The translations under genes were made by a program, and so were the position numbers. From an uncultured Syntrophomonadaceae bacterium (lineage in GTDB: Bacteria > Bacillota > Dethiobacteria > DTU022), in NCBI GenBank assembly GCA_964456945.1, contig CAYWDA010000015.1:13532-37531 (forward strand): 24,000 bases of DNA. Reading direction: 5' to 3'. The notes below the pieces were generated by a model. It was not told the DNA's origin. It saw only the letters and a list, made by a program, of their open reading frames with translations, and ran no database searches. How positions within the stretch are numbered: position 1 is the stretch's first letter; each line of letters begins with the position of its first letter. Below are positions 5,512 through 20,887 of this stretch, in pieces.

Positions 5512-6900
5512 CTAGCTCAGTGCGGATGCAATTTCGATGTAGCGGGCAACATCAAACTTTGATTTTGCCCCATTGTAACTCATATAACGTATTTTCCCAA
5601 AAATCGGTCTCTGGAACCAGGCCCGGTCGTGTACCCCGCCTATGCTCCAGGCGATACCGGCGTAACCGTTAGGGTCGCGACCGTCAAGCGAGTATTTATC
5701 ATTCAGGTATATTGCCAGGGCTAGTGCCTCTTCTGCAGATTCCGTCCACTCTAAGATCTTTTTGGCCCAGTACATGCGCATGTAACCGTGCATTTTTCCA
5801 CGCCTCATCATTTCGGTCTGAGCGGCATTCCAGAGCGGATCGTGCGTTTGTGCGCTTTCAAATTCATCTGCTCTATACAAGTGCTCACGTGGGTCACTGG
5901 CATGGTCAGCCAGGGTTTCTTTCGCCCAGCGCGAAAAACTTTCGACTGAGTCATAGCTCTCGCAGTAGTAGCAGAAATTGTCGGATAGCTCTCTGCGGAT
6001 GATTAGCTCTTCCAGAAAGCCGGATGCTTCTACCCCCGGCGCTTCAGACTGTTTAGCAGAATAGGCTAAACGCTGGGCGCTTAGTTGACCAAAATGCAGG
6101 TAAGGTGACAGGTTTGAAACCCCGTCTTTGGTCGGGTCATTACGATCTGCATTGTAGCGGTGTAACTTTTCTTCTATAAATAACTGCATGGCCTGCCCAG
6201 CTGCCTTCTCACCCGCTTTAAAATAAGCTACCGCTGAAACCGATTTGTCTATTTTCAGGTTCTTTTCCGCTTTTAGCCAGTCTGTAAGCGGCGCACCCTC
6301 TGGCATTGCATGCGGGTGCTTCACCGCTTGTGGTATCTCTGTAAAGTAATCCGGCAGCAGCCTTTTGATCTTCGGCCGGATAGTGTAAGCGGCGTATTCC
6401 TGCTTGGGCGAAGCGACCCAGCAGGGGATAATGTTGTGCGCATCAACTTCAATAAATGCAATATTTATCGTATTTGCAACCTGCGTTTTCCAGTTCTTGT
6501 TAATGCGCAGGGGAGAAAAATCACTGATCAGCGCCCCGGCGTTGTAAGAACTACAAAAAAGGGGAATTTCTTCTTCCGGTTTTCCGGTCACAAGGTAAAA
6601 ACCGACCCCCAGTTTGCTCAGGGTAGTCTCCAATTCTGCCAGCCCCTGCAGCATAAAGCGGTAGTGGCGCAGGGTGGCGCCAATAAATTCAGGCGCCAGG
6701 CAAAAAAGCACAATCAGGGGCACCTTAAATTCCAGGGCCAGATTTTGCGCGTAAAGCAGGGCCCAGTTGTCATTTGCCCGCTGATCGCGGCTCATCCAGT
6801 AGACAATTGGTCCGCTGCCAATAGGTATGTTGTTCAAATATTGTATTCTATGCTCATCAACTGCGTGCTGCATAGTAGGTAAACCTTCTTCCCATAGCAT
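5512..6900 (-). CDS. phr: deoxyribodipyrimidine (CPD) photolyase, class II
   Basis: The C-terminal block DPNGYAGIAWSIGGVHDRAW...FGKIRYMSYNGAKSKFD and the N-terminal VYWMSRDQRANDNWAL are characteristic of class II photolyases. The start is ambiguous: ATG 6900 has no clear SD, and ATG 6873 is the alternative. Confidence 0.85.
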   Translation of the reverse strand: MLWEEGLPTMQHAVDEHRIQYLNNIPIGSGPIVYWMSRDQRANDNWALLYAQNLALEFKVPLIVLFCLAPEFIGATLRHYRFMLQGLAELETTLSKLGVGFYLVTGKPEEEIPLFCSSYNAGALISDFSPLRINKNWKTQVANTINIAFIEVDAHNIIPCWVASPKQEYAAYTIRPKIKRLLPDYFTEIPQAVKHPHAMPEGAPLTDWLKAEKNLKIDKSVSAVAYFKAGEKAAGQAMQLFIEEKLHRYNADRNDPTKDGVSNLSPYLHFGQLSAQRLAYSAKQSEAPGVEASGFLEELIIRRELSDNFCYYCESYDSVESFSRWAKETLADHASDPREHLYRADEFESAQTHDPLWNAAQTEMMRRGKMHGYMRMYWAKKILEWTESAEEALALAIYLNDKYSLDGRDPNGYAGIAWSIGGVHDRAWFQRPIFGKIRYMSYNGAKSKFDVARYIEIASALS

Positions 6901-6926
6901 TTGTGCTGCACATTTGTTATACTTTC

Positions 6927-6935
6927 ATTATAGCA
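6927..6935 (-). promoter_or_regulatory. candidate extended -10 promoter element for the photolyase gene
   Basis: The minus strand reads TGCTATAAT (TGnTATAAT) about 27 nt upstream of ATG 6900. No good -35 was found. Confidence 0.35.
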
Positions 6936-6969
6936 GGTGGGGCAGTAAATAGTTTATTTTGAATAATGC

Positions 6970-6998
6970 TTGACAAATCCCATTCCACCCCCTATACT
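6970..6998 (+). promoter_or_regulatory. sigma-A type promoter driving the riboswitch leader
   Basis: TTGACA (6970-6975), a 17-nt spacer, then TATACT (6993-6998). This predicts a transcription start near 7005, just 5' of the first aptamer. Confidence 0.6.
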
Positions 6999-7020
6999 TA
7001 GAGTCAGGTAAGTTCTAGAT

Positions 7021-7119
7021 AGTCTGCACGAAATGGCAAACCCGTCGAAAGGCGGGGACGCAAAGCTAAAGGGTCTAAGGCTCCACAAGAGCTATGATTG
7101 CCTGGCCACCGAAACTGGC
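7021..7119 (+). promoter_or_regulatory. c-di-GMP-I (GEMM-I) riboswitch aptamer, copy 1
   Basis: GGCAAAC at 7035-7041. P2 hairpin cccgtc-GAAA-ggcggg at 7041-7056 with a GNRA tetraloop. Conserved GACGCAAAGC at 7057-7066, then aaagggtctaagg...gcctggccACCGAAA. This matches the remembered GEMM-I consensus (GGCAAACC..GAAA..GGGACGCAAAGC..GGGUCUAAGG..CAGCCGGG..ACCGAA). Boundaries are approximate. Confidence 0.78.
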
Positions 7120-7215
7120 TTTTTTGTTTTAAAGAGAATAGAGCGGCAAAAGTGGAGGAAATACAAAGCACGATGTCCGGTTGACCTGAAGAATCAGCCG
7201 GGCCAAATAAAAAAA

Positions 7216-7312
7216 CCTGACCGACAAAGGCAAACTACCCGAAAGGGTAGGACGCAAAGCTAAAGGGTCTAAGGCTCCACAAGAGCTAAGACAGCCTGGC
7301 CGCCGAAACAGG
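7216..7312 (+). promoter_or_regulatory. c-di-GMP-I (GEMM-I) riboswitch aptamer, copy 2
   Basis: GGCAAAC at 7229-7235. P2 hairpin ctaccc-GAAA-gggtag at 7235-7250 (perfect 6 bp). GACGCAAAGC at 7251-7260, then taaagggtctaagg...gacagcctggccGCCGAAA. A possible outer stem is cctg (7216-7219) with cagg (7309-7312). Boundaries are approximate. Confidence 0.78.
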
Positions 7313-7322
7313 AAGCTGTTTC
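7305..7322 (+). promoter_or_regulatory. expression-platform hairpin competing with the 3' end of aptamer 2
   Basis: gaaacag (7305-7311), loop gaag, ctgtttc (7316-7322), a perfect 7-bp stem. Its 5' arm is the conserved CCGAAAC tail of aptamer 2, so the two folds are mutually exclusive. Confidence 0.5.
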
Positions 7323-7332
7323 AGCAAAGTCG

Positions 7333-7357
7333 GTCCCTCATGAAGGAGGGACTTTTT
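7333..7357 (+). terminator. intrinsic terminator and SD-sequestering hairpin of the riboswitch expression platform
   Basis: gtccctc (7333-7339), loop atgaag, gagggac (7346-7352), then TTTTT (7353-7357). The 3' arm contains the GGAGG SD (7345-7349), and the U-tract ends 1 nt before ATG 7359. Confidence 0.6.
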
Positions 7358-7358
7358 G

Positions 7359-8504
7359 ATGAAGAAGAAAGCAGCTTGGGTAAAAAGTTTGATAGTATGT
7401 GTAGCAGTAACAGCTTTAATGGCAGGAGCAGGGTTCTACCTGCTGACTGACAGCAATGAAGCAGCAGTCTTAAGCAGCAGTAGTGTGGAAGCCGCCGCAG
7501 TGGAAGAGAAGGTAGCAGTGGTTAGTAACTTAAAAAGCACAGCAGTTCTGGTCGAAGATGACCCTGATGTCGAAGAAGAACCAGAGGAGAAAGTAACAGA
7601 AAATAGTACAGTCAACAGCCAGCCAGTTTCTGTAAAAACAGCGCCGGTTGCTGAAAATACCGTTAAAACAGAAGAAGCAGCCCAGCCGGTTGCAGTGCAA
7701 ACCGCAGCAGTCGCACCGGTTGACAAAAAAGCAGAAAGCGCAGCCCCGGTAGACAGCAGTCCGCAAGTTGAAGCTGTCACCGAAACCCCGGCAGCAGCGC
7801 CTGCGGTTGTCGAAGAAGCCCCTGAGCCAGCCGAACAGCAAGTGGCAGTATCTGCGCCGGTAACCTACAACTGGGGTGCCAGCGGTAACTACACCTTCAG
7901 AATTGAAGTAAAAGTAACCAACAACGGCTCAGAGGCCTCGCAAAATGTAATGGTCTCGGTTCCGCTGCTTGAAAACAGCTCCCCCTACCAGACCACAAGC
8001 TTAATCTCAGTCAACTATGATCTAGTCTCCACTGCGGGGCGCGTCAGCACCTTTAACCTGGGCGACCTTGCCCCGGGTGAAACAAAAACAATCATCGCCG
8101 ATTTCAACATCAATGTGCGCACCGTAGCGTTGAACAATAGCAATGAAACAGTCGAGAAAGCGCGCATTGCCTACGACAAGCACAAAGGCAGCGGAAACTG
8201 CCGCGTACTGGCCCAGGCCTTTATCAACGAAGCACGCGCCATGGGCTTAAACGCCAGAGAAGTTGTTGGCTTCGCCCGCCCGCAGCGTGGGGCAATGACC
8301 TCCGGTTCGCTGCAGGGTAGCCGTCACAGCTGGGCTGAGTTCTACGTAGACGGTCTTGGCTGGGTACCGGTCGACCTGACCTTCCAGTATTTCGGCACCT
8401 TCCCCCAGACTTCTCACATCGTTGAATGTTACGGAGACCAGTCGATAAAAGTTAACTTCACCGGCGGAAGCTTAGGTGCAAGCTGGAGCAACTCGGTTCT
8501 TTAA
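7359..8504 (+). CDS. membrane-anchored transglutaminase-like (Cys-His-Asp) domain protein with a low-complexity A/V/E/P linker
   Basis: N-terminal signal anchor KKKAAWVKSLIVCVAVTALMAGAGFYLL, followed by an acidic Ala/Val/Pro-rich linker of about 140 aa. A beta-rich module follows (YTFRIEVKVTNNGSEASQNVMVSVPL...GDLAPGETKTI). The C-terminal transglutaminase core has GNCRVLAQAF (Cys), SRHSWAEFY (His) and WVPVDLT (Asp). ATG 7359 is 9 nt from GGAGG; the track starts 3 nt earlier at TTG 7356. Confidence 0.8.
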   Translation: MKKKAAWVKSLIVCVAVTALMAGAGFYLLTDSNEAAVLSSSSVEAAAVEEKVAVVSNLKSTAVLVEDDPDVEEEPEEKVTENSTVNSQPVSVKTAPVAENTVKTEEAAQPVAVQTAAVAPVDKKAESAAPVDSSPQVEAVTETPAAAPAVVEEAPEPAEQQVAVSAPVTYNWGASGNYTFRIEVKVTNNGSEASQNVMVSVPLLENSSPYQTTSLISVNYDLVSTAGRVSTFNLGDLAPGETKTIIADFNINVRTVALNNSNETVEKARIAYDKHKGSGNCRVLAQAFINEARAMGLNAREVVGFARPQRGAMTSGSLQGSRHSWAEFYVDGLGWVPVDLTFQYFGTFPQTSHIVECYGDQSIKVNFTGGSLGASWSNSVL

Positions 8505-8567
8505 AAGTTTTTCTTTAATGCATCCCTCCTTCAAATGTTTGATGAGATGCATTTAATACCCAAAGAA

Positions 8568-8600
8568 GGCCCCGGTCCTCCACTACCGGGGCCGCTTTCT
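8568..8600 (+). terminator. probable terminator after the transglutaminase-like gene
   Basis: A 9-bp stem, ggccccggt (8568-8576) with accggggcc (8585-8593), followed by gctttct, which is a weak T-tract. A second hairpin, aatgcatc/gatgcatt, lies at 8517-8553. Confidence 0.5.
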
Positions 8601-18441: not shown

Positions 18442-19551
18442 GTGCCCGCTAAATCGCCGCGCTGCAATCACCCTGAAGCGATTGCCAACATACTGGTTCG
18501 CATTTTGGAAAAAACCCCGCTCGGGGGGGCAACAATTGAAGATCTTGAAGAAGCTTACGAAGAGGTCAAAGGAACCTACCCTTCGCGCAAGACCATCTAC
18601 CGCGCTCTTGAGCGGTTGGAGCTTTTGTTTGACCCGCTGGCCAGGGGTGAGAACCCCGAAGAAGGCGAAGAACCTGATAATGAGCGTTCTACCTGGCTTG
18701 ACGATGATCTACCCGGTCCCCTGGTTGGCATAAAAAGAGTTAAAAGAAATCGTAAAACTTACTATGTTTTTGAAGGGCAAATGGCCGCGCCCGCCTTTAA
18801 CATCAATGAATCGCTTCACGCGGCGCTAAGCCTTTACCCGCAGTATCGCGGCATGCTGAAAGACGCCTACCACAAGATTATGCGTAAACTGCTGGCCGAG
18901 AGTTTAGCGGGTGTTAGTATCTATAACCTGCTGATCAACGAAATCGAAAATCATGTTCATGTCGCTGAACCGGTTCCGGCCGACCCGAAAAAATTTACCC
19001 ATCTGATCAGTGAAATATTTACTGCCCTGCGGCATAAAAACAGGATTAAAATTAAATATTTACGCACTTATGATGGAGTGGAAACCGAGCGGATTGTCGA
19101 GCCTTATGGTTTGCTCAACCGCTTCAACAATTTCTACCTGACCGGTTACTGCCTGAAGAGTGAAGCGAACCGCATCTTTCATGTCGTCCATATCAGGGAG
19201 CTAACCATTATCGAGAATTCTCACTTCCGAATGCCTTCCAGTTATTCGCTGAAACGCGCTTACAGCCAGGCCTGGGCAACCTGGACCTCTGAAGGCAATG
19301 TTGCCCTGGAAGATGTGCGTATCAGGGTCTGCTGCGGCACTGCTGAACGCTTCCGGGTGATCAATTTTCATGAGTCGCAGAAAGTCAGAGAGCTTGAAAA
19401 AGGGGAAATTGAGATTACCTTTCGCCTGACCGGCGCCAGCGAGATGGTCCCCTGGATCGCCAGCTGGGGTCCTGACCTGAAAGTCCTGGAACCCTTATGG
19501 CTGCGCGATGCAGTGGTTGCCTATCTGCAAAAGGCGTTGGACGGGTATTGA
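18442..19551 (+). CDS. WYL-domain transcriptional regulator (N-terminal wHTH, WYL, C-terminal WCX-like)
   Basis: wHTH-like N-terminus (ILVRILEKTP...GATIEDLEEAY...SRKTIYRALERLE). WYL-domain pattern IKIKYLRTYDGVETERIVEPYGLLNRFNNFYLTGYCLKSEANRIFHVVHIRELTI. GTG start with AGGAGG 6 nt upstream. Confidence 0.8.
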   Translation: MPAKSPRCNHPEAIANILVRILEKTPLGGATIEDLEEAYEEVKGTYPSRKTIYRALERLELLFDPLARGENPEEGEEPDNERSTWLDDDLPGPLVGIKRVKRNRKTYYVFEGQMAAPAFNINESLHAALSLYPQYRGMLKDAYHKIMRKLLAESLAGVSIYNLLINEIENHVHVAEPVPADPKKFTHLISEIFTALRHKNRIKIKYLRTYDGVETERIVEPYGLLNRFNNFYLTGYCLKSEANRIFHVVHIRELTIIENSHFRMPSSYSLKRAYSQAWATWTSEGNVALEDVRIRVCCGTAERFRVINFHESQKVRELEKGEIEITFRLTGASEMVPWIASWGPDLKVLEPLWLRDAVVAYLQKALDGY

Positions 19552-19591
19552 GATAGGCACTCCCGCTGTATAAAATTTGAGGATCGGTTAG

Positions 19592-20887
19592 CTACTTAAT
19601 TGCAATATATCTTCTGCTTTTGCCTCCACCCACAGCCTGGAGAATTGCTTTGCTTACAAGACTTTTGATGATACGGCCGGACATAGTTTGAGAAACCTTC
19701 AGAGCTTTCTCCACATCTTTTCGTGAAATTTCCTTTTCCCGCGCCGCCAGATTTATAACAATCTGTTCCTTTTCGGATAATAGATTCTGTACATTTTCTA
19801 TATTCTTATTGGGCAGGGTGGTTTTAAACGCATTTCCTGATGCCTCGAAGTTGGGTTTTTTAGGATAATCGTCATAACTTCTCAGTATCTTCGGCACACC
19901 CGTTCCATAGGCTTCAATAAGTGTCAACCGATAAAAGATATGTGCCAAATTTTCGTTACGCGTCATTGAAACTCCGAGCATCATATCATCAATCGAGATC
20001 CCCTTGACCAAGCCACCAACAGAAATAAACTCAATCCTATCATTAAAAATACTGATCAAAGTGCTTGCGCTGTATCCGTAATCCCTGTGCACAATTGAAT
20101 TAAGCAGAGCTTCCCTCAATGCTTCTTCTGGGTAGTCTCTTTTGTCTACCCTGTGCAGCCCTGTGTATTCTGCCCGAATCTTATTATACTGTGAAATGTA
20201 TTCAAATGCCTCGTTAAGTTGCTTTAGGAGGGATCCATCAAACTCACGCCTGTCCATGAATACTGTTTTCGTTGTTCCATCGAAGACAGCAGCTTTAATG
20301 GTGTGCACACACTGGTCCGATAGCAATAGTCCGAGATTTGTATAGATACTGTCTGCATTTACAATCTTAAGGGTTTTATACTGGCTTCCCCCGAAAGGAA
20401 CCTTTCTCTCGCGGAATTCCTTGTTTGCAGCATCAAAGGTTAAATTCTGATTGAGTGAACGCATATTCTCAAAGCTATCTCCATCTGTTTCCTTAATCAT
20501 CCTTCGTATGGTGTTTTCAGTAGCGGGGACAGAAGATGAGCCCTGACGGACAAACACACCTTCCGGGCGCAAGCCTTTAACTGAAAGATAGTATGGGCTT
20601 TCCGTGCCTTTATCTACTACGATCTTAATAACGGATTTTCCGTCGATTTTCTCACTATTGCAAGACACAAATAAAGTTATGTCAGGTTTAATGGCATCGC
20701 GGATCATATTGGATATCTTTAGCATTTCCCCGTCTACATCTGTTACCCCAATAATCTCGCCGTTATTTTCGATCCCTACATATATCGTCCCACCATCTGT
20801 ATTTGCAAAAGCTATAACTGTTTTCCGAATATCATCGACTACCTGCCGTTTTAATTCAAGCGTCAAACCTTCTGTTAAGTTCACCAC
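19592..20887 (-). CDS. AlbA_2 (Schlafen-type divergent-AAA) / HATPase_c_4 / C-terminal wHTH protein, often annotated RecG-like putative transcriptional regulator
   Basis: N-terminal EGLTLELKRQVVDDIRKTVIAFANTDGGTIYVGIENNGEIIGV is the AlbA_2 signature. The middle region EALREALLNSIVHRDY...YGTGVPKI fits the HATPase_c_4-type domain. The C-terminal LSEKEQIVINLAAREKEISRKDVEKALKVSQTMSGRIIKSLVSKAIL is wHTH-like. GTG start. G+C is markedly lower than in the neighbours. Confidence 0.8.
   Translation of the reverse strand: MVNLTEGLTLELKRQVVDDIRKTVIAFANTDGGTIYVGIENNGEIIGVTDVDGEMLKISNMIRDAIKPDITLFVSCNSEKIDGKSVIKIVVDKGTESPYYLSVKGLRPEGVFVRQGSSSVPATENTIRRMIKETDGDSFENMRSLNQNLTFDAANKEFRERKVPFGGSQYKTLKIVNADSIYTNLGLLLSDQCVHTIKAAVFDGTTKTVFMDRREFDGSLLKQLNEAFEYISQYNKIRAEYTGLHRVDKRDYPEEALREALLNSIVHRDYGYSASTLISIFNDRIEFISVGGLVKGISIDDMMLGVSMTRNENLAHIFYRLTLIEAYGTGVPKILRSYDDYPKKPNFEASGNAFKTTLPNKNIENVQNLLSEKEQIVINLAAREKEISRKDVEKALKVSQTMSGRIIKSLVSKAILQAVGGGKSRRYIAIK

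Follow-up and report, generated by a model that had tools for sequence, protein, structure and literature searches.

A conserved c-di-GMP-I riboswitch doublet upstream of a transglutaminase-like gene in Dethiobacteria-like Bacillota and its probable OFF logic

Among tandem riboswitches whose members respond to the same ligand, those for cyclic diguanosine monophosphate of class I (c-di-GMP-I, also known as GEMM-I) are the most numerous, with 347 doublets and 12 triplets on record (Sherlock et al., 2022; PMC9481103). A 2025 survey found three riboswitch families, c-di-GMP among them, to be significantly enriched in contiguous arrangements, and genes of the transglutaminase-like class COG1305 in Bacillota to be significantly enriched downstream of c-di-GMP-I doublets (PMC12452182). 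Here, we describe a doublet of this kind in a stretch of 24,000 nucleotides (nt) from an uncultured Syntrophomonadaceae bacterium (contig CAYWDA010000015.1; hereafter, the window), where two complete aptamers, unit 1 and the gene-proximal unit 2, occupy the 5′ leader of a gene encoding a transglutaminase-like protein. The two aptamers belong to class I c-di-GMP riboswitches arranged in series, both of which most likely, as judged from conservation and predicted folds, act as OFF switches. A preliminary description, made from the letters of the window, had regarded tandem GEMM-I arrangements as uncommon, a view that the number of doublets in the 2022 survey does not bear out.

The closest characterized systems differ in the sign of their response. 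Bc3-5 from Bacillus thuringiensis is a triple tandem of c-di-GMP-I elements that uses conventional terminators and is switched on by the ligand (Zhou et al., 2016; PMC4759541). Cd1 from Clostridioides difficile, on the other hand, is a c-di-GMP-I OFF switch, in which the ligand-bound (holo) aptamer co-occurs with a terminator and the ligand-free (apo) RNA forms an antiterminator (PMC9262584). Six of the seven class-I-linked genes of C. difficile that responded to raised c-di-GMP went down, including the protease gene zmpI; its product ZmpI, which cleaves adhesins, is repressed through a class I riboswitch (Cdi-1-12), while the adhesins are induced (PMC6200980). Two systems with other ligands are also relevant, namely the tandem thiamine pyrophosphate (TPP) riboswitches of Bacillus anthracis, which are among the tandems in Table 1 of the 2022 survey (PMC9481103), and the HMP-PP riboswitch, the aptamer of which is embedded in a terminator (Atilho et al., 2019; PMC6478431).

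The window was scanned with cmscan against all 4227 Rfam families. RF01051 (c-di-GMP-I; gathering score, 35) was the sole family matched, with two matches, both on the plus strand and both covering the model from end to end (positions 1-87 of 87): 7025-7113 for unit 1 (77.6 bits, E 6e-14) and 7219-7307 for unit 2 (81.5 bits, E 6.7e-15). A more permissive scan gave no further Rfam matches in 6900-7450. These full-length matches confirm the earlier claim of two complete GEMM-I aptamers in one leader, for which two RF01051 matches above the gathering threshold had been expected. As a direct repeat of 87 nt, the units are 85% identical, and their start-to-start distance is 194 nt, the same as the spacing first reported. 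All the motifs quoted in the preliminary description (GGCAAAC, GACGCAAAGC, GGGTCTAAGG, and CCTGGCC(A/G)CCGAAA) are present in both. The P2 stems of the two units differ through compensating changes (CCCGUC/GGCGGG versus CUACCC/GGGUAG) and are capped by a GAAA loop in each, and the tetraloop-receptor-like internal loop of P3 has UCUAAG on one strand in both, opposite UAUGA (unit 1) or UAAGA (unit 2). In an alignment of unit 1 from 29 leaders (Rfam fold plus P1), 93.9% of the cells were paired and 13 pairs had changed on both sides; none of 500 shuffles matched the observed pairing values. The tandem is thus far beyond chance.

By their ligand-contact bases, both units are canonical c-di-GMP aptamers, as G20, A47, and C92 are kept in each. 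The numbering is that of Vc2, transferred to the Rfam model; this mapping agrees with the model pairs G21-C46 and C22-G45. The presence of G20 in both units rules out a reading as aptamers for c-AMP-GMP (c-GAMP, GEMM-Ib), which carry A20. The c-di-GMP-I-GGC variant (RF03167), whose consensus (GACGC-G-AA) has G at the position of A47, can also be ruled out for the two units, which RF01051 explains best and in which A47 is kept. RF03167 labels were obtained for about 20 ortholog aptamers; A47 is retained in all of them, and the labels are a scoring artefact caused by competition between related models within the clan.

To follow the doublet beyond the window, 47 genome loci encoding relatives of the protein were fetched and 43 of them scanned with Rfam. 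Two GEMM-I matches were found in 27 of the 43, about 170-210 nt apart from start to start (one exception, L038, has 136 nt) and ending about 50 nt before the start codon, at protein identities to the window down to approximately 46%. The same pair precedes the gene in a near relative (L052; 87% identity) and in ten metagenome contigs. Overall, the gene is preceded by the same two aptamers in about 38 orthologous loci from Dethiobacteria-like Bacillota, while about 12 loci have a single aptamer, which in each case inspected is the gene-proximal unit with its full platform. Features at the 5′ side that distinguish the units, AACGAUAAU-GGC in unit 1 and ACCGACAAAG-GC in unit 2, are kept across species and mark the doublet as old. 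Similarity between P3 regions is higher for the two units of one locus (0.86) than for different loci (0.76), pointing to occasional gene conversion between the repeats. Since the doublet is retained across a whole clade of uncultured haloalkaliphilic Bacillota, it is a selected device rather than a recent accident.

Some individual loci deserve mention. Locus L012 contains two identical aptamer copies, and several short-read contigs of close relatives break within the repeated P3 segment (L048 1-107; L053 1-105; L049 1-332). In L006 (2678-2767) and L017 (122-211), unit 1 has A20 in place of G20, a change typical of c-AMP-GMP variants of GEMM-I, and unit 2 retains G20; these are possibly heterotypic tandems.

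Only one promoter-like site lies within 6500-7700, and a TTGACA/TATAnT pair is found at equal distance in orthologous leaders. Transcription would start near 7005-7007, so that the leader spans about 7006-7358, with both aptamers on the strand of the gene between promoter and start codon and with the same layout as in orthologs. The near-consensus promoter at 6970-6998 and the ATG at 7359 had both been recognized at the outset; the latter opens a 381-codon open reading frame (ORF). The spacer between the aptamers measures 105 nt and comprises a U tract, a hairpin conserved in place, and an A run.

Unit 2 is followed by a full set of alternative helices, termed H, P0, and T2 (Table 1), from which its logic can be proposed. 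Its outer P1 strands vary in concert, giving CUCG/CGAG in L025 and CUCG/CGGG in L016 and L028. Hairpin H engages G94 together with CAG from the 3′ strand of P1, and a register shift to CCGAAA/UUUCGG in L033 and L036 brings in C92 as well. Helix P0, the proposed antiterminator, encloses the aptamer and hairpin H. Both strands of its 7-base pair (bp) core are invariant in 38 of 38 leaders, and most orthologs lengthen it to 9-11 bp through CAAAG/CUUUG, reaching G20, with an exchange of A-U for G-C in L038 and L040. P0 shares C4/G5 with the inner part of P1 and GGUC with T2, the last four bases of GUCGGUC being the first four of the T2 5′ arm; because the RF03167 structure assigns the inner CG/CG pairs to P1, P0 competes with P1 for the same nucleotides. 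T2, which is 99.3% paired across 38 leaders, holds the Shine-Dalgarno sequence GGAGGG (7345-7350) inside its 3′ arm, and the predicted fold of 7300-7362, with T2 and hairpin H, has an energy of -25.5 kcal/mol.

In sum, P1 cannot coexist with H or P0, nor P0 with full T2. As P1 of the ligand form excludes H and P0, it would go with T2, and we infer for unit 2 an OFF switch that controls termination as well as translation initiation. The preliminary description had held that ON or OFF could not be read from the sequence; these mutually exclusive helices, conserved in about 38 leaders, point to OFF, at least for unit 2. Predicted folds are consistent with this assignment. For 7205-7358, the free minimum contains H and P0 (-55.0 kcal/mol), and forcing P1 and T2 gives -47.2 kcal/mol, a cost of 7.8 kcal/mol. 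When the transcript is folded as it grows, P1 is present at 7312, H has replaced it by 7323, and P0 appears by 7335. P0 with a shortened T2 was found in the minimum free energy (MFE) fold of 27 of 37 orthologous leaders, with a median cost of the ligand form of 8.5 kcal/mol, an amount that ligand binding by a tight c-di-GMP aptamer could, by our estimate, supply.

Much less follows unit 1. Where unit 2 has H, P0, and T2, unit 1 has a conserved U tract directly after P1 and a weak, unconserved GGCCA/UGGCU pairing; no antiterminator, anti-P1 element, or separate conserved hairpin was seen. Of the nine nucleotides that follow the P1 3′ strand, six or more are U in 28 of 29 leaders for unit 1 (median, 7), versus 19 of 38 for unit 2. 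The outer part of P1 reads AACCUG/CRGGUU in most loci. Three stems could adjoin the unit 1 U tract: P1 itself, the GGCCA/UGGCU hairpin, and an internal hairpin, AGCCUG:CRGGUU, which uses the 3′ strand of P3.

The second of these stems (GGCCA at 7104-7108 with UGGCU at 7116-7120; -5.1 kcal/mol in the window) was rejected as a conserved unit 1 terminator. Across orthologs it is pairable in 76.6% of cases, mostly through G-U pairs, and shows no covariation. A G-to-A change in L049 disrupts this stem; the contig of L049 stops short of the 5′ flank, but the flank of L052 is identical to the window, and with such a flank the change would convert a P1 pair from U-G to U-A. The internal hairpin is pairable in 88.5% of cells, with a median of -6 kcal/mol, again with no covariation. 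It is impossible in five loci (L037, L038, L033, L036, and L040), two of which (L037 and L038) nevertheless keep P1 and the U tract, and it would need to displace the pre-formed P3. Moreover, the same sequence with a U run follows unit 2 in many orthologs, where an effective terminator in the apo state would contradict the unit 2 platform and keep the gene off with or without ligand. The internal hairpin was thus kept only as a rival to P1. A P1 helix that is stabilized by ligand and serves as the terminator stem, giving OFF, fits all loci; we favour it tentatively, at slightly less than even confidence. The chief competing view is that unit 1 does not itself function as a terminator.

The proposed mechanism is as follows. 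Without c-di-GMP, hairpin H of unit 2 would capture the 3′ strand of P1, and GACCGAC and GUCGGUC would form P0, removing GGUC from T2, so that RNA polymerase reads through; the Shine-Dalgarno sequence would then be held only in a 4-5 bp stub, two bases from the U run. With c-di-GMP, P1 (CCUG/CAGG plus CG/CG) would be locked, preventing H and P0, and the full 8-bp T2 (7332-7353, followed by U5) would form, terminating transcription 1-2 nt before the start codon and burying the Shine-Dalgarno sequence. In unit 1, the stabilized P1 abutting the U tract at 7120-7130 would probably terminate transcription as well, although this step is less firmly founded than those of unit 2. The read-through fractions of serial OFF checkpoints would multiply, leading to deeper and steeper ("pseudo-cooperative") repression as c-di-GMP rises; in many orthologs there would be three checkpoints, counting the P1-plus-U-run after unit 2. 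A steeper response of tandems has been argued generally for c-di-GMP and for tandem TPP riboswitches (PMC9481103). Of the two responses envisaged in the preliminary description, the steeper one holds up and the two-threshold one is not favoured.

Several points weigh against this scheme. In the window, P0 has only 7 bp, with CAAAG where orthologs have CUUUG, and the apo minimum is only 1.3 kcal/mol more stable than a fold with H and full T2; when a few upstream bases are added, the MFE fold of the window shows T2. Because of the short P0 and this small gap, the antiterminator of the window is marginal and would need to win kinetically. (The row for the window in the ortholog MFE comparison contains half of the linker hairpin, which distorts its fold.) Covariation support for P0 and T2 is thin, since their key strands are invariant, and the logic as a whole is drawn from nearest-neighbour folding and conservation. 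In unit 1, CRGGUU can pair equally well with the internal AGCCUG, which would make an apo-state terminator and hence ON logic. Finally, literature searches found no published case of an aptamer's own P1 serving as the stem of an intrinsic terminator, which is why our confidence in this role for the P1 of unit 1 stays below even. The combined picture, with both units OFF and unit 1 using its own P1 as terminator stem without a separate platform, is a shade more doubtful still. Even so, a serial OFF arrangement remains the reading that we prefer, and four others were weighed against it.

The best-surviving of these, unlikely in our judgment, holds that only unit 2 regulates and that unit 1 is a duplicated aptamer without a platform of its own. 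Unit 1 might then act as a ligand buffer, a folding or insulating element, a source of a short stable RNA, or simply a neutral duplicate under gene conversion, and its U tract would be either a remnant of hairpin H or a site of pausing, a role known for U-rich stretches that follow aptamers. The lack of an antiterminator or anti-P1 element in unit 1 fits this view, as do the singleton loci, which manage with unit 2 alone, and the greater likeness of P3 within loci, which suggests homogenization. Harder to accommodate is a full, covarying unit 1 aptamer with canonical ligand contacts in about 38 loci, in which the unit-specific AACGAUAAU and ACCGACAAAG persist across species and the U tract is much better conserved than that after unit 2. 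Because aptamer, 5′ features, and U tract of unit 1 are all conserved, selection appears to act on a function that uses the U tract.

An ON/ON tandem is improbable. In such a design, terminators built from the 3′ part of each aptamer would form in the apo state, c-di-GMP would cause read-through, and the enzyme would be made at high c-di-GMP. The precedent counts against the OFF reading, as the sole experimentally characterized tandem c-di-GMP-I element, Bc3-5, works in this way (PMC4759541). The window also offers suitable pairings: the GGCCA/UGGCU hairpin overlaps the 3′ strand of P3 and is followed by U6, and AGCCUG can pair with CRGGUU in most orthologs. These are, however, the small hairpins discussed above, devoid of covariation, largely G-U in the one case and impossible in five loci in the other. 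In unit 2, formation of P1 frees the 5′ arm of T2, and the helix that hides this arm, P0, consumes P1 nucleotides and G20. The repeat of the internal hairpin and U run after unit 2 in many orthologs likewise speaks against an apo terminator there, which would keep the gene off in both states.

Still less probable is a pair of opposite signs, with unit 1 ON through the internal hairpin as apo terminator and unit 2 OFF, so that expression would occur at intermediate c-di-GMP only. The platforms of the two units do differ, and at the unit 1 U tract the internal hairpin is competitive with an aptamer lacking P1 (median, -22.2 versus -21.5 kcal/mol). The objections to the internal hairpin, including the lack of covariation, apply here as they do to an ON/ON tandem; in addition, the holo P1, with nearly the same stem sequence, adjoins the same U tract, making a difference in sign hard to justify. 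If true, the leader would be a natural single-ligand band-pass filter.

The most remote of the four is true cooperativity between coupled aptamers, in which the unit 1 tail (CRGG plus U run) pairs with the unit 2 leader (A run plus CCUG) in a linker helix that would block both P1 helices until one aptamer binds ligand: although this cross-pairing is the MFE fold of the isolated linker in most orthologs (9-14 bp in L008 and L039), in L005 breaks in the U run have counterparts in the A run, and an A run is conserved before unit 2 and not before unit 1, its core complementarity follows automatically from the like P1 sequences, is broken where unit 2 P1 has changed (L024, L025, and L028), is weak and not predicted in the window, and cannot affect unit 1, whose termination decision precedes synthesis of the A run.

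If serial OFF control is correct, an extracellular transglutaminase-like enzyme would be repressed at high c-di-GMP. This would parallel ZmpI, and, speculatively, the enzyme might serve in remodelling of matrix or adhesins in the low-c-di-GMP, non-sessile state. Unit 1, consisting of nothing more than an aptamer and a U tract, would provide a compact natural test of a ligand-stabilized P1 helix as a terminator. The coordinates of all features are collected in Table 1.

Table 1. Features of the leader, the regulated gene, and its 3′ end, in window coordinates.
Feature	Position	Strand	Basis
Sigma-70-type promoter, TTGACA (6970-6975), 17-nt spacer, TATACT (6993-6998)	6970-6998	+	11 of 12 consensus matches
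Unit 1 c-di-GMP-I aptamer with P1	7021-7120	+	RF01051 match and covariation in 29 leaders
Unit 1 P1, outer, AGUCUG with CUGGCU	7021-7026 with 7115-7120	+	89% paired, 2 compensated pairs (29 leaders)
Unit 1 P1, inner	C7029-G7111, G7030-C7110	+	RF03167 consensus structure
Unit 1 ligand-contact bases	G20 = 7035, A47 = 7062, C92 = 7109	+	Base counts at mapped positions
U tract UUUUUUGUUUU directly 3′ of unit 1 P1, proposed termination site	7120-7130	+	Conserved; terminator role putative
Purine-rich Shine-Dalgarno-like linker motif AGUGGAGGA	7151-7159	+	About 11 orthologous leaders, with one or two copies per linker
Linker hairpin of 10 bp (7175-7184 with 7194-7203), then A-rich run (7205-7215) into unit 2	7175-7215	+	In every predicted fold
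Unit 2 c-di-GMP-I aptamer with P1	7216-7312	+	RF01051 match and compensatory P1 changes across 38 leaders
Unit 2 P1, outer, CCUG with CAGG	7216-7219 with 7309-7312	+	Compensatory variants in 38 leaders
Unit 2 P1, inner	C7222-G7305, G7223-C7304	+	RF03167 consensus structure, which marks the inner CG/CG pairs as P1
Unit 2 ligand-contact bases	G20 = 7229, A47 = 7256, C92 = 7303	+	Base counts at mapped positions
Helix P0, proposed antiterminator, GACCGAC (7219-7225) with GUCGGUC (7329-7335)	7219-7335	+	MFE fold of 7205/7214-7358
Hairpin H, anti-P1, GAAACAG-GAAG-CUGUUUC	7305-7322	+	MFE fold; 87% paired across 38 leaders
T2, putative terminator and Shine-Dalgarno sequestor, GGUCCCUC (7332-7339), loop AUGAAG, GAGGGACU (7346-7353), U run (7353-7357)	7332-7357	+	8 pairs, 5 of them G-C
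Regulated gene, 381-residue transglutaminase-like protein	7359-8504	+	PF01841, E 1.1e-13
Conserved structured 3′ element, hairpins A and B	8517-8593	+	About 22 of 28 orthologous loci, 17 metagenome contigs

The regulated gene encodes a protein with an N-terminal hydrophobic membrane anchor, a low-complexity linker rich in Ala, Pro, Glu, and Val, and a transglutaminase-like core, in which Cys281, His323, and Asp339 are invariant among 30 homologs. The product is thus predicted to be a membrane-anchored extracellular transglutaminase-like cysteine enzyme; a PDB sequence search and NCBIfam gave nothing for it beyond the Pfam transglutaminase core. Its closest named homologs are from metagenome-assembled genomes of Dethiobacteria or "Syntrophomonadaceae" and from Candidatus Contubernalis alkaliaceticus. 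The gene is probably monocistronic, because a strong hairpin terminator (8568-8593) follows it and a separate promoter-like site precedes the next gene, which encodes a LOG/TIGR00730-family protein. No genes for c-di-GMP-metabolizing GGDEF, EAL, or HD-GYP proteins were found among the window ORFs scanned, and the rest of the window is ordinary chromosome. At 18442-20887, a gene for a WYL/WCX-domain protein on the plus strand adjoins one for a Schlafen AlbA_2/HATPase_c_4 protein on the minus strand; such domains are frequent in defence or regulatory islands and seem unrelated to the riboswitches.

Orthologous loci contain further RNA elements near the same gene. Extra GEMM-I aptamers were detected in seven of them (L004 4455-4545; L012 4522-4611; L014 301-390; L018 593-681; L023 178-258; L032 1124-1213; L036 821-900), located either after the gene, ahead of the next one, or some 2 kb upstream, and these genomes are densely populated with c-di-GMP riboswitches. 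In L021 (4382-4557), L027 (3830-4005), and L030 (4363-4538), the transglutaminase-like gene is directly followed by a cobalamin riboswitch; in L017, domains of a group II intron (1752-2066) lie downstream of the gene.

In the linker, most orthologs have a GC-rich hairpin of other sequence and an A-rich run at the same place before unit 2. Two linker candidates were rejected: a second promoter at TTGACC (7181), which has no acceptable -10 box and was not returned by the promoter scan, and a small ORF (ATG 7173, 3 codons), which is poorly spaced from GGAGG and is not conserved.

The 3′ untranslated region (UTR) of the gene contains a second conserved structure, which may merit separate attention for its complementarity to the gene's own Shine-Dalgarno region. 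Hairpin A (8517-8553) opens with the almost invariant AUGCAUCCCUCCUUCA, 0-20 nt past the stop codon, and includes UCCCUCCUUCA (8523-8533), which is exactly reverse-complementary to the Shine-Dalgarno region UGAAGGAGGGA (7341-7351). The loop of hairpin B, the terminator itself, carries UCCUCCACU (8576-8584), an exact reverse complement to the linker motif AGUGGAGGA; the 24 kb contain these two occurrences and no more, compared with 0.09 expected. Pairing of 7151-7159 with 8576-8584 is not thereby proven, as the 3′ loop is conserved even where the linker lacks the motif. An 18-mer of the 3′-UTR hairpin, CCGGTCCTCCACTACCGG, is identical in 18 fetched loci and has 30 matches in metagenome contigs, 17 of which sit 53-61 nt after an orthologous gene; the other 13 do not exceed a rough chance estimate for an 18-mer in so large a collection. 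No Rfam family was found for the element, and an E-value scan gave chance-level matches only. It may serve in pairing between the 5′ and 3′ UTRs or as a C-rich small RNA derived from the 3′ UTR.

How, then, does the leader compare with described systems? It shares with the surveyed c-di-GMP-I tandems two complete class I aptamers in one 5′ leader and a downstream gene of the flagged COG1305 class; termination signals for each unit and a "pseudo-cooperative," steeper response are likewise expected of them (PMC9481103). The surveys provide counts and gene classes, but not the anatomy or logic of this family of transglutaminase leaders. COG1305, Dethiobacter, and yebA were looked for in the supplementary data of the 2025 survey and not found. 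Like Bc3-5, the present doublet consists of near-alike class I aptamers arranged head to tail, controls a surface or extracellular protein, and would respond in a more digital manner. In Bc3-5, however, each unit has its own terminator, the 5′ arm of which is drawn from C92, the 3′ strand of P1, and part of P3, whereas in the window the platform of unit 2 suggests OFF logic, no separate terminator hairpin accompanies unit 1, and the copies number two rather than three.

Unit 2 resembles Cd1 in design, as in both the ligand-bound P1 would coexist with a terminator and an antiterminator would form in the apo state only. The two differ in that Cd1 is a single unit whose antiterminator uses the 3′ strand of the aptamer (A+T), whereas P0 of unit 2 uses the 5′ strand and leaves capture of the 3′ strand to H; furthermore, the terminator of the window would also sequester the Shine-Dalgarno sequence. 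At the level of the target, Cdi-1-12 and zmpI offer a likeness, in that a secreted protease is repressed by c-di-GMP, as proposed for the transglutaminase-like enzyme.

Other tandems and unusual platforms are more distant. The TPP tandem employs another aptamer class and a conventional terminator/antiterminator pair for each unit. Welz and Breaker are said to have described it in 2007 as two independent serial OFF riboswitches with a steeper dose-response and no true cooperativity. The HMP-PP riboswitch resembles unit 1 in that aptamer and intrinsic-terminator stem share nucleotides, but it is a tiny aptamer within a normal terminator, whereas unit 1 is a full-size three-way junction closed by a putative terminator stem; its ligand reportedly prevents termination (ON), whereas that of unit 1 would promote it. 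The tandem glycine riboswitch also places two homologous aptamers for one ligand in one leader. Its aptamers, however, are adjacent, dock with each other, and share a platform; the window pair, separated by 105 nt that include a U tract and a structured linker, lacks the adjacency, short linker, and single platform of a glycine-type cooperative dual aptamer. Thus, c-di-GMP-I doublets and the transglutaminase-like gene class downstream of them are already known, and what this locus adds, as computational details, is clade-wide conservation, the proposed OFF logic, and the minimal platform of unit 1.

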